Shown here piece after piece: positions 27,126-35,373 of a stretch of DNA of 64,000 bases. The DNA comes from an uncultured Gemmatimonadaceae bacterium. GTDB taxonomy: Bacteria; Gemmatimonadota; Gemmatimonadetes; Gemmatimonadales; Gemmatimonadaceae. The stretch covers positions 327,614 to 391,613 of the forward strand of contig CAWGJO010000021.1 in the NCBI GenBank assembly GCA_963822945.1. Reading direction: 5' to 3'. Position 1 is the stretch's first letter. Every line of letters starts with the position of its first letter. Both the position numbers and the translations under genes were made by a program. The notes below the pieces were generated by a model. The model was given only the letters and a program-made list of their open reading frames with translations. It was not told the DNA's origin and did no database searches.

Positions 27126-28421
27126 CTAGCGCCCGGCGGCTCGGGCGGCGCGCCGATAGAACCAACCCGAGAACGGTTGCGTTCCGCCGATGGGCACGTA
27201 CGCCGCCTTGTTGTGGAGCAGCACCCCGTCGGCGAAGTAGGTGTGCGGCGGATCCACCGCAATGTCGAATACCGTTGCCGCTGCGATTTCCCTGGTGACG
27301 GTCGCTCGGGCGATTCCCGTCGGTGTCACCAGCTCGGCCCCCGAACGAACGTCCCGCGCAAGAACCCACTGCCCGTCGGCGTATACCGGATGATTGCCGG
27401 TGACTCGCAGACGACCGATCGCCCACAGCCTTTCGGCGTATGCGGTCTGGATGCCACGCACCAGGCTCGTGGTCCGGGTGTGCGACGTCTCGTCGTAGCT
27501 GACCACGAGATCGCCCACGCGAAGCGCCTCCACCGGGACCGGTCCGGAAGGAGTCGCTATGCGCGTCCCGCCGGCCACGCACGTGAAGTGCTGGAACTCG
27601 TCGACGAAGAGCTGCTTCCCGGACGGATTGGACAGGACCTCGACGACGTTGACGTCGTAGCGCTCTCGATCGTCTCGCAACGTGAAGCGCATCCAGCGGT
27701 TGCCGTCCACGTCATCCACGGTGGGTGCACTCGGCTTGGGCGGTGCCGCAAGGGAGTGGCTCTTGGCGACCGCTTTTGCCGTCAGGGCCTCGAGCTCGTC
27801 GATGCTCTTCATGGCGTCGCCGCGCTGCTTCACTTCGAACCGAAGTGGCTTCGACGAGACGGCAATCACGCGCTCCTTCGTCTTCAGCTCGCCCGCCAAG
27901 GCAAACGAATACTTGCCGGGGGTAGCGAACAACCCTGTCGCAGGCTCGTTCCACTCGCGATCCCCCAACCCCTTGTCGCCAACGCTCAGGTTTTGGACCA
28001 AGCTGGCCAGCGGCCAAGCCACCGGCCGTTCTTTCTTCGGCGCGACGCTGAGCTTTCTCGTCTTCCCGTCCGGGCCTTCGATCACGAACACGAGACCGAG
28101 CACGGCTTCGGACCAATCGAGTTGCTCCCGGTACCAAGGAGCGCTGCGCGCGGGTTTGACCGACGGGCGAAATTGCAGCGCGACATGCAGGGGCTCGCCG
28201 GTCGCAATGGTGCTCACCAGCAGTCGAAGCTCCGTGACGACTCCCGCCCGGACCTCTCCCCGCGCCGAATTGTCCCGAATCGGAGGGCGACTCGGGGCGG
28301 GCGGAGGCGCAGACGGTGGAGGGCGGCTCGAACGCGCGGACCGTGTGGTGCTCACGCGGGCTTTGTCTTCACAGCCGGACAAGGCCAAGACGAACACGAG
28401 CCCCATGGCCAATCTGCGCAT
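27126..28421 (-). CDS. Lipoprotein with C-terminal Hint (intein-like) domain
   Basis: Lipobox LSGC; Hint motifs CVAGGTRIATP...EALRVGDLV, LRVTGNHP, VFDIAV..HTYFADGVLLHN at 27210-27581. Confidence 0.85.
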   Translation of the reverse strand: MRRLAMGLVFVLALSGCEDKARVSTTRSARSSRPPPSAPPPAPSRPPIRDNSARGEVRAGVVTELRLLVSTIATGEPLHVALQFRPSVKPARSAPWYREQLDWSEAVLGLVFVIEGPDGKTRKLSVAPKKERPVAWPLASLVQNLSVGDKGLGDREWNEPATGLFATPGKYSFALAGELKTKERVIAVSSKPLRFEVKQRGDAMKSIDELEALTAKAVAKSHSLAAPPKPSAPTVDDVDGNRWMRFTLRDDRERYDVNVVEVLSNPSGKQLFVDEFQHFTCVAGGTRIATPSGPVPVEALRVGDLVVSYDETSHTRTTSLVRGIQTAYAERLWAIGRLRVTGNHPVYADGQWVLARDVRSGAELVTPTGIARATVTREIAAATVFDIAVDPPHTYFADGVLLHNKAAYVPIGGTQPFSGWFYRRAARAAGR

Positions 28422-28455
28422 GCGCCAACATACCAACAATCGGGGTACTTGGTTT

Positions 28456-28477
28456 TTGTCGCTGCTTCGCGGAACCG
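28456..28477 (-). repeat. Dispersed ~22-bp repeat, copy E (degenerate)
   Basis: TTGTCGCTGCTTCGCGGAACCG, 3 mismatches to consensus. Confidence 0.6.
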
Positions 28478-28490
28478 TCGCGGCCACCCC

Positions 28491-30002
28491 TCACGCGGCC
28501 GCGGACTGAAACAGCCTCGCCTTGAGCGCCGAGAGCAGAGCCAGCGCCGGCGAGAGCGCCGTCCGTTCGAGCGCCGGCGAGACTCCATGCAGCGCCCGCG
28601 AGGTCTCGAACAGCGCGCGCTTGGCGACCCGCGCCGGCCGCGAGCTCTTCTGCAAGTCGTGGAGCCACATGAACTCGAACACGTCTTCGATCTTCTTTCG
28701 CACGTCCGGCACGTAGTGGAAGAAGTCCGCGTCCATCACGGCGCCGCGGGTAAAAAGCTCTGTCTGATAGTAGGCGTGACGGTGGCGGTCGGGCGCGTCG
28801 AAGCTGCGCTCGCGGCTCAGCCACCAGCCCTCGAGGTCGTACGCATCCTTGTGGTCGTCGTAGATCTGGGTCCCGGGGAACGGGATGAGTATCGAGGCGA
28901 TGGCCGGATGGAAGCGCGCCACGTGGGGCGCAAGCTCCCGCATCAGTCGCTGGGTCGCGTCGATGGACTCCACCGTGTCCCAGGGGAAACCGAGGATGAA
29001 GAAGACACAGGTGCGGATCCCGCTCGCCGCCGTCAGCTCCACCATGCGACGCGCGCGAGCCACGTCGTGCGGCTTGTGGATCTTCTTGAGCGTCTCGGGG
29101 TGGCCGCTCTCGATTCCGTAGTCGATTTGTACGCAGCCCGCGCGCGCCAGAGTGCCCAGCAGGTCTTCGTCCACCCGATCAACGCGAGTCATCATGCTCC
29201 AGGTGAGGCCCAACCCGCTGTCCATGAGCCCCTCGCAGATCTCGAGCATGCGAGGACGGTTGACAGTCATCGCGTCATCCATGAAGTGGAAATGGCGCGT
29301 GCCATAACGCTGGTACAGCTCGGTCATCTCGCCCAGCACGCTGGCCGCCGAGCGGAAGCGGAAACGCCGGCCAAACAGCCCCCCCGCGCAATAGGCACAC
29401 TTGGCAGGGCAGCCACGAGACGAGAACAGATTCATGTGCAGCGCGGGGTTTTCAGGACCGCCGTATTCGTCGGCGTCCACCAAATGCCGGGCCGGCGCGG
29501 GCAACGCATCCAGATCCGCCACGGGCGGGCGCGCGGCACCATGGACGATTCGTCCCTCGTCGTCGCGGTACACCCAACCCGCCACCTGCTCCTTGGGCAT
29601 CTGCCCGGTGAGCGCACGGACCGCCTCGACGATGGTCGGCTCGCCCTCGCCCACGACGGTCGCGTCGAAGCCGTGCTCCAGGGGCTCTTCCGGGAGAAGC
29701 GTGGCGTGGGGACCTCCAGCCAAGAGCTTGGCGCCGCTGCCGGACAACAGCGAGGCCAGTCGATACGCCTCGCGCGCGATGGGCGTGACCAGCGTCACGC
29801 CGATCACGTCCGGCCGCTCCGCATGGGCAACGCGTGTGATTTCCTCGCTGCTTCGCTTCCGTGCGGTAGCGTTCGCATCGAGCAGTCGCACCTCGTGCCC
29901 TGCGCCCTCGAGGACCGCGCCGAGCATCGTCAGCGCTGCCGGACAGCTCTCGTGGAATTGAGTGCGAGAAGGCGGGTAGACGAGCAGGATTTTCTTCGGC
30001 AT
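28491..30002 (-). CDS. Cobalamin-binding (class B-type) radical SAM protein
   Basis: ILLVYPP, GGPHAT, VGEGE, SSRGCPAKCAYC, FMDD, GIESG, FILGFP, PFPGT. Confidence 0.92.
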   Translation of the reverse strand: MPKKILLVYPPSRTQFHESCPAALTMLGAVLEGAGHEVRLLDANATARKRSSEEITRVAHAERPDVIGVTLVTPIAREAYRLASLLSGSGAKLLAGGPHATLLPEEPLEHGFDATVVGEGEPTIVEAVRALTGQMPKEQVAGWVYRDDEGRIVHGAARPPVADLDALPAPARHLVDADEYGGPENPALHMNLFSSRGCPAKCAYCAGGLFGRRFRFRSAASVLGEMTELYQRYGTRHFHFMDDAMTVNRPRMLEICEGLMDSGLGLTWSMMTRVDRVDEDLLGTLARAGCVQIDYGIESGHPETLKKIHKPHDVARARRMVELTAASGIRTCVFFILGFPWDTVESIDATQRLMRELAPHVARFHPAIASILIPFPGTQIYDDHKDAYDLEGWWLSRERSFDAPDRHRHAYYQTELFTRGAVMDADFFHYVPDVRKKIEDVFEFMWLHDLQKSSRPARVAKRALFETSRALHGVSPALERTALSPALALLSALKARLFQSAAA

Positions 30003-30141
30003 CCGAACCCCTCCGCGTGGACGTCCCGGCTCGATGCGCGCAAGGTTCGTACCATCGCGCGGTCGCGATTGTTCGCGCGCGCCTACGACACGCTGGCGCA
30101 ACGCAGGCGGGCGCCGCCCTCCGGCCGGCAATTTTCGCGCG

Positions 30142-32015
30142 CTAGAGCGAGACGAGCCGCAGCCGCCGGCGGCCATCGGGCAGCGGGGGCAGCACCACGC
30201 TGCCGGAGCTCTCCGGAAGCGGGAGCTTCTGGTTCTTGGCGTACACCGGGTGCTTGCCGTGCTCCTTGAACCACTCGGCGACGCTCGCCGTGCGGTGGAT
30301 CTTCTCCACGATCTGCCGCCAGCCCACGCCGGTGTTGTAGGCGCAGAAGCTGATCTCCCCCATCTGCGTGCCGTACGGGATGATGCACATCTCGGTGCGC
30401 CGGAAGTCGTAGTTGAACAGATCCTGAAACCACATCCCGGCCACGAATAGAAAGCGCCACTCGAAAGCGTCGGCGTCGCCTTCGCTGGCGCCAATCGCAT
30501 CCCCCTTGGCTCCCATCTGGCTCAGCACCTGACGAACCATCTCCGTGAGGCCGTAACCCTCCGGTGCTCGTTCAGGATGGAAGTTCCTGAGCAACGCCAG
30601 CGCCAGAGCCGCCATCGTGATGGGCTTTTCCCGGCCGGCGTCCGCGACTTCCTGCAGATCCCTGAGCAGCTGATCCACGTCCACGAACTGACTCACCGGC
30701 ACCCAGCGCTTGGTCTTCTTGTGAACCAACAGCACGGTTCCGATGCCGCAGTTGGGATGACAGCCGCACTTGAGGGCCCCGAACTCCGCGCTTTGCCCCA
30801 GCAGGTGGTCCACCACGTCGCTGAAGGGGTTCATGGCCGAAAGCGGAAACCAGTCTCTCAGCGGTTCCGTCGCGCCCAGCTGTCCCTTCACGTCGTGGGC
30901 CAGGTGGCTCAGGGTGTAGCGCTGAGCTTTTCGCACCTCGTCGCTGACGTCCTCGTCCCGGCCCGTGAAGCTCACCGGCTGAAACGACACCACCGTGATC
31001 TTGTCGGCGTTGTCGATGGCGAACTGGACGATGGGCCCCACCTGGTCGTTGTTCACGCCGTTCACGATAGTGACGACCAGCACCACGTCGATGCCCGCTG
31101 CGTGCAGGTTCTCGATGGCGCGAAGCTTCACATCGAACAGATTGCCCACCTTGCGGTGACTATTCGCCTCGTTGGTGACCCCGTCGAACTGCAGGTACGC
31201 CAGCCTCAGCCCGGCGCGCTTGGCCTCCTGGCAAAACTCCGGCTCTTGCGCGAAGCGGATACCGTTGGTGGCGCACTGCACGCAGAAGTAGCCGATGTCC
31301 CGCGCGTAGCTCACCGCCCGAAGGAAATGGGGCTCAGGGTGGGCTCGCCACCGGAGAACTGCACGCTGAGCTGCCGCCGCGGCTTCACACCGAGGGAGTC
31401 GTCCAGGATCTGCTGGATGTCCTCCCACTCGAGCTCGTGCACGTAGCCCACCTGGTTGGCATCCATGAAGCACGGGTCGCACATCATGTTGCAGCGATTG
31501 GTGAGGTCCACCGTCAGCACGGAGCCGCGGCCGTACTTCACGCTGGAGCTGCCGTGTTCCCTGAGGGAGGTCTTGGGCGCCAGATAGTCCCGACCCGGAA
31601 ACAGCTCCTCGATGCGGGCGAGGAAAGCGGGGTCGATGCTCATCACGTCTTCGAAGGGGCCGTGCTTCTCGCACTTCTTCTGCATCACGATGTGACCGTC
31701 ACGCTCCACGATGTGCGCCTTGATCTCGCCGGAGTGGTCCATCAGTGCGCCCAGGTTCGCTCGCCCCGACAGCACGGCCTTGCGCACTTCCTTCACGCAT
31801 TCGGGGCACAGCGAGTCCGTCTGCCGCGGCCAGCCGAGCTTCGGGAAGGTTCGCTCCTGTTTTCGAATCAGTGGCGCGGGAGCCCACTTCGGTTGCACCC
31901 GTGCGCCCGGAAAGCGCTCGCCCAGAGCGCGCACCAACGGCCAGGCGGCACGGGCGCTCTTGGTGAGCAGCTTCTCGGCGAGCACGGGCAGCCCAGAGCG
32001 CGAGGTCACCTGCAT
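30142..32015 (-). CDS. tes: Radical SAM protein of the tetraether lipid synthase (Tes / GDGT-MAS, MJ0619-like) family; frameshift at 31329-31332
   Basis: SLCPEC and KKCEKHG metal site; DLTNRCNMMCDPCF; QFSGGEPT; ATNGI; YLQFDG; FQPVSFTGR; CHPNCG; MWFQDLFNYD..R..C.I; ISFCAYN. Adding one C to a C run joins the two ORFs (GGEPTLSP-HFLRAV). Confidence 0.8.
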
Positions 32016-32083: not shown

Positions 32084-32104
32084 CGATTCCGCGGCGAACC
32101 AACA
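32084..32104 (+). repeat. Dispersed ~22-bp repeat, copy F (degenerate)
   Basis: CGATTCCGCGGCGAACCAACA, 18/21 identical to copy C. Confidence 0.65.
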
Positions 32105-32112
32105 TCATTCGA

Positions 32113-34818: not shown

Positions 34819-35373
34819 ATGGGCCGGGCAGTACTATGGGTCGCGCTCTCGATCATTCTCTCGGCGAGCAGCGCGCGGGCAGCCGCGGGCGGCAACCAAC
34901 GTGCGAGAGTGTCGGCGCACGGCGCGCAGGCGAAGCGAGCTTCCGCGCCGCACAAGCGAAAGACGGCATCGAAGGCCGCGGCGCGGCGCCCGCACGAGAA
35001 GCAGAGTGCGGCCGCCATGAAGCGTGCCGCCGCCAAGCGACATGCCGCCGCCAAGCGACATGCCGCCGCCAAGCGACATGCCGCCGCCAAGCGACATGCC
35101 GCCGCCATGAAGCGTGCCGCCGCCAAAAAGCGCGCCGCCGCCATGAAGCGTGCAGCCGCCAAGAAGCGTGCCGCCGCCAAGCGACATGCCGCCGCCAAGC
35201 GACATGCAGCCGCCAAGAAGCGTGCAGCCGCCAAGAAACGCGCCGCCGCCAGGGAGCGCGCAGCGGCCAGGCGGCGCGCAGCCGCCAAGAAGCGCGCCGA
35301 CGCTCGGAAGAAGGCGCGCGCGAAAAAACGGAAGGCAAAGAAGGAGCACAATCGGCCGAAGCGCCGGAGCTGA
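34819..35373 (+). CDS. Highly basic Ala/Lys/Arg-rich repeat protein (histone H1-like composition) with signal peptide
   Basis: MGRAVLWVALSIILSASSARA, then (AAAKRH / AAAKKR / AAAMKR)n. Confidence 0.6.
   Translation: MGRAVLWVALSIILSASSARAAAGGNQRARVSAHGAQAKRASAPHKRKTASKAAARRPHEKQSAAAMKRAAAKRHAAAKRHAAAKRHAAAKRHAAAMKRAAAKKRAAAMKRAAAKKRAAAKRHAAAKRHAAAKKRAAAKKRAAARERAAARRRAAAKKRADARKKARAKKRKAKKEHNRPKRRS
35009..35298 (+). repeat. Imperfect 18-nt coding tandem repeat (GCCGCCGCCAAGCGACAT)
   Basis: About 15 consecutive 6-codon units visible in the DNA. Confidence 0.85.

Follow-up and report, generated by a model that had tools for sequence, protein, structure and literature searches.

The 64,000-nt stretch of DNA considered here (the window; positions 327,614–391,613 of contig CAWGJO010000021.1, which is contig C21 of source genome G000) is Polyangiaceae DNA inside a Gemmatimonadota record and carries, side by side on the reverse strand, a radical S-adenosylmethionine (SAM) gene resembling the tetraether synthase Tes (gene 1) and a gene for a B12-binding radical SAM enzyme (gene 2, the partner). 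The reading judged probable is that these are two functionally separate genes that came to stand next to each other in one Polyangiaceae lineage, with the frameshift interrupting gene 1 being an assembly error and the short repeats on either side of the pair being distributed genome-wide. To judge from its fold, ligands and position in the tree, gene 1 descends from Tes; it is Tes-like by anatomy, is not a Tes by strict tests, and belongs to a separate bacterial clade of proteins of ~600–700 aa (the long clade). The B12 enzyme looks like a local neighbour of this gene and not a fixed partner. The comparisons below rely heavily on the sister genome G299, which lies within a family sample of 251 Polyangiaceae genomes. 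The features of the pair are as follows.

30142..32015, reverse strand: Tes-like radical SAM gene (gene 1), in two frames, with a 228-aa N-terminal part and a 395-aa C-terminal part, 624 aa across the break.
31330..32015, reverse strand: N-terminal frame of gene 1, with an amphipathic N-terminal helix, a rubredoxin-type CxxC...CxxH site with a 21-residue insert, the SAM cluster motif CxxxCxxC and no N-terminal cluster ([Fe4S4]N) motif.
31329..31332, reverse strand: one-base frameshift in a short run of C, the gap relative to the intact G299 gene lying near 31330.
30142..31329, reverse strand: C-terminal frame of gene 1, with the rest of the barrel, C423, C544 and C558, M528 (equivalent to Met439), Y548 (equivalent to Tyr459) and the clade-specific C417 and C419.
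30003..30141, reverse strand: intergenic spacer, 139 bp between the stop of gene 1 and the start of gene 2; ~134 bp in G299.
28491..30002, reverse strand: gene 2, which encodes a 503-aa radical SAM protein with a B12-binding domain (PF02310, E 4.5e-20; PF04055, E 9.7e-21) from an unnamed, patchy family.

The genes, motifs, one-base frameshift and two flanking repeats reported in a first-pass annotation of this DNA are all present. In the protein read across the break, the motifs are C70xxC73...C115xxH118 at the rubredoxin site (where the spacer is 41 residues instead of 20), C175xxxC179xxC182 at the SAM cluster, and CGCHPNC (C423), EMCIIPY (C544, Y548), SFC (C558) and M528 in the C-terminal part, with C423, C544 and C558 being assigned as ligands of the C-terminal cluster from the alignment and not from coordinates. 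The reference for this anatomy is the description by Lloyd et al. 2022 (PMC9433317) of GDGT-MAS, an enzyme of glycerol dialkyl glycerol tetraether (GDGT) synthesis that contains a rubredoxin site, an N-terminal cluster (C73, C77, C80 and a His, which is located in a loop of the N-terminal domain), a SAM cluster and a C-terminal cluster with a labile Met439, along with a conserved Tyr459. GDGT-MAS is the sole PDB sequence match of either half of gene 1. The predicted model of P0123, the nearest database protein (predicted local distance difference test score, pLDDT, 85.8), superimposes on 7TOM with a Z score of 37.9 and a root-mean-square deviation of 2.5 over 479 residues at 33% identity, the next entry reaching a Z score of 16.8. 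This comparison was made on P0123 as a stand-in for the window protein; P0123 is encoded in G299, is intact at 624 aa, and is 83% and 92% identical to the two window halves, without stops.

In the alignment, the ligands of the rubredoxin site, the SAM cluster and the C-terminal cluster, together with the equivalents of Met439 and Tyr459, are kept in 35 of 35 long-clade rows, and C417 and C419 are gained in all 35. The [Fe4S4]N motif, the absence of which the first-pass annotation had not mentioned, is found in none of these 35 rows (the window protein included), as compared with three of three bacterial Tes rows and 13 of 21 archaeal rows, and is thus not strictly universal among the archaeal rows either. 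An exchange of ligands involving H154, C417, C419 and H420 was entertained and is not claimed, because the His of the N cluster belongs, according to Lloyd et al. 2022, to the loop of the N-terminal domain. Against the NCBIfam model for Tes (NF045702, cut-off 450), P0123 scores 346.5 bits and the two window halves 90 and 238, whereas four control Tes-like proteins score 464–565. The phylogeny that the first-pass annotation had suggested places the protein inside the Tes group (97/97), in a long clade of its own (100/100) that is sister to bacterial Tes (90/98), with the window protein located among Polyangiaceae. This arrangement is common to two trees, a quick one calculated with a mixture model and a careful one of 31 rows without it (34 of 65 rows were left out, including the longest branch, L100); the archaeal rows are almost all from Thermoplasmatota, which is a narrow sampling, and long outgroup branches were flagged. 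The proposed membership in Tes therefore holds as far as descent is concerned (fold, ligands and a place inside the Tes group) and fails in the strict sense, with a score of 346.5 against 450 bits and the N-cluster motif absent.

As to function, the balance tips slightly towards gene 1 working like GDGT-MAS on membrane lipids. While homology, ligands, the fold of the intact relative, distribution, the non-conserved adjacency and collinearity are matters of observation, every enzymatic step is a conjecture built on them. Gene 1 is the family's usual single-copy member of the Tes-derived bacterial clade. In the proposed mechanism, its product may dock on the membrane by means of the amphipathic N-terminal helix. 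Cleavage of SAM would generate 5'-deoxyadenosyl radicals, which would abstract hydrogen from a terminal carbon; the first substrate radical would be parked on the C-terminal cluster, for which three Cys and a Met are conserved, and a second radical would then close the C–C bond. The likely substrates would be iso-branched acyl or alkyl chains. Because the N-cluster motif is gone, the supply of electrons to the enzyme would have to differ from that of Tes. Gene 2 would have come to adjoin gene 1 in the ancestor of the window organism and G299.

A different function for the long clade, in which the Tes scaffold performs another radical reaction on a lipid or hydrophobic substrate by using the new CxC near the C-terminal cluster, is considered unlikely, although it is the strongest of the alternatives. 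It would account for the long stem of the clade (1.16 changes per column in the careful tree and 2.69 under the mixture model in the quick tree) and for the loss of the N-cluster motif along with the gain of C417 and C419, and the coexistence of the clade with cut-off-passing bacterial Tes in some Acidobacteriota suggests a division of labour. It is also in keeping with this alternative that no report of membrane-spanning lipids in Polyangiaceae was found in the literature. However, every catalytic ligand named by Lloyd et al. 2022, the surface N cluster excepted, is invariant, and Edaphobacter aggregans makes branched GDGTs with one Tes homologue (32%, 4e-61; PMC8941075), a score that appears typical of the long clade.

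The long clade is widespread. A match at E<=1e-60 is present in 173 of the 251 Polyangiaceae genomes, nearly always as a single copy, and 148 of 251 Acidobacteriota genomes match at E<=1e-50, ~115 genomes being at the level of the long clade (best E<=2e-150, counted by hand); both acidobacterial tallies include the unpublished genome G367. Besides coexisting with cut-off-passing Tes in some Acidobacteriota, the clade also occurs beside copies that bear the N cluster. In two acidobacterial loci, L301 (G484:C18:52000-66000) and L302 (G567:C14:16000-28000), a long-clade gene and an N-cluster-bearing Tes-like gene are co-oriented at a distance of 3.5–5.7 kb and enclose a Vps10/BNR-repeat gene, an arrangement that hints at local duplication or shared function. 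In other cases the long-clade gene has a convergent neighbour, a LuxC-like acyl-CoA reductase gene in 7 and a LuxE-like gene in 5 of the 116 loci (L119, L121, L123, L125, L135, L140, L146).

Gene 1 belongs to a common bacterial branch with homologues already listed by Zeng et al. 2022 (PMC8941075), who reported 456 bacterial Tes homologues, proposed a role for them in branched GDGT synthesis, and included Sorangium, Labilithrix, Chondromyces, Minicystis, Sandaracinus and Anaeromyxobacter; these listed myxobacterial homologues would be members of the long clade. Because most of the Acidobacteria that produce iso-diabolic acid are without both the coupling enzyme Mss and a Tes by strict thresholds, yet ~115 of the 251 Acidobacteriota genomes carry the clade, it is tentatively suggested, at well below even confidence, that the cluster-less Tes clade provides the tail coupling for which an enzyme has been missing in aerobic soil bacteria, the Polyangiaceae among them. 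If that were true, the Polyangiaceae, in which the clade is near-core (173/251), would be producers of iso-diabolic acid or branched GDGTs that have gone unrecognised. Uncertainty about the makers of branched GDGTs and their enzymes limits a widely used palaeoclimate proxy. Of relevance to this is a Tes-derived clade that can be missed by strict BLAST thresholds, is frequent among Acidobacteriota, approaches core status in Polyangiaceae, and has cultured representatives (Sorangium, Labilithrix, Minicystis).

The first-pass annotation had read the two genes as a lipid module, with tail coupling by the Tes-like enzyme followed by methylation or cyclisation by the B12 enzyme; in archaea, the latter part is played by Gmm and Grs. 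The adjacency is, in contrast to this proposal, limited to the window organism and its sister G299. The Tes-like gene is found near the partner in none of 35 close partner loci (50–79% identity, flanks of up to 8 kb, some shorter, from Polyangiaceae, Planctomycetota, Acidobacteriota, deltaproteobacteria and two archaea) and in none of 36 distant ones. Among the 35 close partner genomes, all of which are metagenome-assembled genomes, 6 carry the long clade elsewhere and 3 more have a cut-off-passing Tes, with 29 showing no long-clade match. Seen from the other side, the partner adjoins the Tes-like gene in 1 of 116 Tes-like loci, that of G299 (95 of the 116 had at least 1 kb downstream); one further weak partner match among these loci, L199, has no Pfam match. 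It was likewise beside none of 29 further acidobacterial Tes-like genes when searched with a profile that recovered 35 of 36 control loci, and no pairing occurred in wider 20-kb stretches around three Tes-like and two partner loci of the family. Within the family, the partner is present in 6 of 251 genomes (5 of them with close orthologues), and among those 6 it adjoins the Tes-like gene only in G299.

These counts, and the disparity between 6 and 173 family genomes, render the module improbable. In its favour, the two genes are on the same strand 139 bp apart and are kept together in G299 while the flanks vary; in archaea, both Grs and Gmm belong to the B12 radical SAM enzymes, and gmm has been found beside gms (PMC13459092); and a long amphipathic helix forms the end of the partner model. 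Furthermore, a DUF2229 domain, as present in the PlsA/Ger-type ether-forming enzymes, occurs in G299 within a 1466-aa frame, four of five family genomes tested having such a domain. A lineage-specific operon of the pair is possible. The stronger form of the tail-coupling proposal, in which the adjacent B12 enzyme has additionally been enlisted by this lineage for methylation of the coupled lipid, is rated as more doubtful still, and the locus does not supply a synthase-plus-modifier module. A better place to look for a pair of Tes and B12 enzymes may be the acidobacterial locus L298 (G535:C213:2000-9000), where a Tes-like gene that keeps the N cluster is convergent with a DUF4070 B12 radical SAM gene, which is 27% identical to the partner and unrelated to it.

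The partner falls below the cut-off of every NCBIfam model that it matches (score/cut-off: ApyD 185/750, BchE 167/481, HpnJ 143/578, HpnR 71/650), and the HpnP model is not among its 23 NCBIfam matches. No reference sequence, structure or model for GrsA/B (Saci_1585/Saci_0240) or Gmm is present among its PDB or NCBIfam results. The predicted partner structure resembles TsrM, AprD4, OxsB and MgmA about equally, the best structures giving a template modelling (TM) score of ~0.63 at 19–22% identity. Among 36 partner loci (the 35 close ones and the window stretch), 11 encode a Cys-rich protein of 170–210 aa and 10 a GNAT_6 protein, and the same loci, approximately a third, also contain Asn synthase, GT2/GT4, deacetylase and exosortase genes, while no lipid genes recur beside the partner in these 36 loci. 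Exopolysaccharide tailoring is the only recurring context of the family. The partner is most likely a cobalamin-dependent methyltransferase, the best guess being that it methylates a sugar or glycan substituent by radical chemistry. The Cys-rich protein itself (L015:9510-10034 and 10 homologues) is without a match in Pfam or NCBIfam at the thresholds applied.

The first-pass annotation had also described the genome as myxobacterium-like, which agrees with the collinearity of the window with the Polyangiaceae genome G299 and with the frequency of the Tes-like gene in that family; that the contig is chimeric was not part of it. The composition of contig C21 shifts at ~143–145 kb. To the left of this point it matches genomes of the nominal Gemmatimonadaceae genus, whereas from ~144.9 kb the tested stretches, which were taken from outside the middle of the block and include the window, align in order with contig C11 of G299. 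The junction lies at ~143,900–144,900 (L079:11900-12900). The host 16S is presumably that of a Gemmatimonadota bacterium. Most likely, ~248 kb of Polyangiaceae DNA has been joined to a Gemmatimonadota contig through misassembly at a low-complexity stretch, with a huge horizontal transfer being a formal alternative. The Tes-like gene is present in 0 of 16 genomes of the nominal genus and gives 3 weak matches in 60 genomes of nominal relatives (best E 5.5e-15); this near-absence is explained by the chimeric contig, and a transfer of the gene pair into Gemmatimonadota is rejected as its cause. Findings from the ~248-kb block should be read as myxobacterial, as its presence in a Gemmatimonadota record would mislead gene-based surveys of lipid producers. 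The assembly quality figure (0.79% contamination) does not reveal the chimera.

The remaining features relevant to the frameshift and the repeats are the following.

~22380: further single frameshift, in a PP2C-type phosphatase gene, relative to the intact G299 frame.
~37835: further single frameshift, in a Ser/Thr kinase gene, relative to the intact G299 frame.
28453..28476, reverse strand: repeat E, a degenerate copy of a 20–24-bp dispersed repeat (20.9 bits).
32085..32108, forward strand: repeat F, a strong copy of the same repeat (33.7 bits).
11376 (reverse), 22777 (reverse), 24609 (forward), 28476 (reverse), 32085 (forward), 33471 (reverse), 34734 (forward) and 61279 (forward): copies of the dispersed repeat in the window, seven strong ones and the weak E.

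The frameshift is probably an error of assembly or consensus and not genuine. An error-prone consensus is the simplest reading because P0123 is intact and two other collinear genes are split likewise: 28 G299 frames (some of them shadow frames) have a match of 65% or more, and 3 of them are split in the window, namely the Tes-like gene, the kinase and the phosphatase. The earlier repair of the gene to ~624 aa agrees with the length of the G299 relative.

The repeat copies E and F are assumed to be the same as those that had been named in the first-pass annotation as possible boundaries of a mobile unit. The repeat has the consensus GGTTCCGCGnCGrACCrACA with an A-rich tail, and its pattern gives 11 matches in the window versus 0.91 expected, six copies lying between 22.7 and 34.8 kb and one of these inside a coding frame. 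No site of at least 14 bits occurs in 320 kb of host DNA, an exact 18-mer is present in 12 copies in the Polyangiaceae block and in none in the rest of G000, and exact copies number 447 in G299, 1122 in G062, another Polyangiaceae genome, and 0 in each of G061, G200 and G009 (reversed control, 0). Because the repeat is genome-wide and G299, where the pair occupies the syntenic place, has no copy at the E or F position, the bracketing is no sign of mobility. It is very improbable that E and F delimit a mobile cassette consisting of the pair, or that the Tes-like gene has truly become a pseudogene in this strain: E and F do face outward within ~70 bp of the gene ends, are missing from the corresponding places in G299, and the frameshift is present in the assembly, but the pair is located inside a region collinear with G299 at 70–82% identity in which the flanks vary and not the pair, composition is flat across the window, the Tes-like gene is close to being a core gene of the family, repeat copies are numerous both locally and, by the hundreds, in two relatives, and both halves of the Tes-like protein closely match an intact one.

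The dispersed repeat, which is sometimes arranged in close inverted pairs, sometimes inside genes and often near variable gene slots, could be a REP-like (repetitive extragenic palindromic) repeat, an uptake-like sequence or a recombination site. A hairpin was considered and rejected, as four copies fold no better than shuffled sequences. A general repeat finder (seed 11, minimum 25) did not place the E/F family among its 20 largest, and no literature was found on myxobacterial REP or on this repeat, which is possibly more novel than the finding on the Tes-like gene and its partner. Elsewhere in the window, positions 27126-28487 (reverse strand) encode a protein that is predicted to be secreted and has a Hint domain at its C-terminus, the slot it occupies being different in G299, and positions 34945-35358 hold an 18-bp tandem array encoding a histone-like tail rich in Lys, Ala and Arg. 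No Rfam match and no sigma-70 promoter-like site were found in the window, terminator-like sites (8 versus 4.3 +/- 1.8 in shuffles) are not clearly above the shuffled background, and an ESM Atlas lookup returned generic cluster names only.

It has to be noted that several observations weigh against the reading of two functionally separate genes, one Tes-derived and one concerned with glycans, with an artefactual frameshift between the halves of the first. The pair with its spacer is kept at 79% nucleotide identity in G299 although the flanking slots on both sides differ, and many of the Tes-like loci had flanks of 1.5 kb only. Approximately two thirds of the partner loci, including the Polyangiaceae loci analysed, are orphans without glycan genes. 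The commonest neighbour of the long clade is a metallophosphoesterase gene (24 of 116 loci), which is not a lipid gene. As regards the frameshift, the contigs from three DNA runs with shares of 0.06–0.09 are short or derive from relatives, and no RNA run is listed. Sahonero-Canavesi et al. 2022 (PMC13159169), who reported no Mss, and Tes by strict thresholds in 3 of 14 Acidobacteria producing iso-diabolic acid, argued for another pathway. Finally, neither an assay of any long-clade member nor a description of the gene pair was found in the literature, of which subscription journals were mostly not covered.

When compared with known systems, gene 1 shares with GDGT-MAS/Tes (M. jannaschii MJ0619, PDB 7TOL/7TOM, NF045702) the fold, the 3Cys+His rubredoxin site, the SAM cluster, the ligands of the C-terminal cluster and the equivalents of Met439 and Tyr459. 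It differs in having no C73/C77/C80 [Fe4S4]N motif, two extra Cys that are invariant in the long clade, a 60-residue N-terminal extension with an amphipathic helix, the 21-residue insert in the rubredoxin site, and a score below the cut-off. The bacterial Tes homologues of Zeng et al. 2022 and of Halamka et al. 2022 (PMC10087280), the latter having proposed Tes and Grs homologues in Solibacter, come from the same taxa and show a similar level of likeness to archaeal Tes (Sorangium sce6491 and others; Solibacter Acid_2410, 714 aa, 30%, 4e-62), while the passages of these two papers considered here do not separate a cluster-less long clade from bacterial Tes proper (e.g. Acid_5929, 545 aa, 40%). 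The literature considered also comprised PMC13274423, bioRxiv 2022.04.07.487437 and bioRxiv 2025.10.20.683597.

In bacteria, coupling of fatty acyl tails by a radical SAM enzyme is proven for Mss of Thermoanaerobacter and Thermotoga (PMC13159169, PMC13459092). Mss is described as having no more than a remote relationship with Tes, as restricted to anaerobes and as undetected in Acidobacteria (PMC13159169), and it is on this description that it is set apart here. Boukhchtaber et al. 2025 (PMC11868695) regard Myxococcota as candidate producers via Mss/Ger, with bacterial Tes as unconfirmed, and the ether lipids of myxobacteria are supported by the passage on elb/agps in PMC13159169. The partner has in common with GrsA/B, Gmm, Cgm/Pgm, HpnJ, HpnR, BchE, ApyD, TsrM, MgmA and AprD4 an architecture of B12-binding and radical SAM domains, which is shared by thousands of unrelated enzymes; its best scores, those for ApyD, BchE, HpnJ and HpnR, are far below the cut-offs, and it belongs to a family whose recurring context is exopolysaccharide loci.

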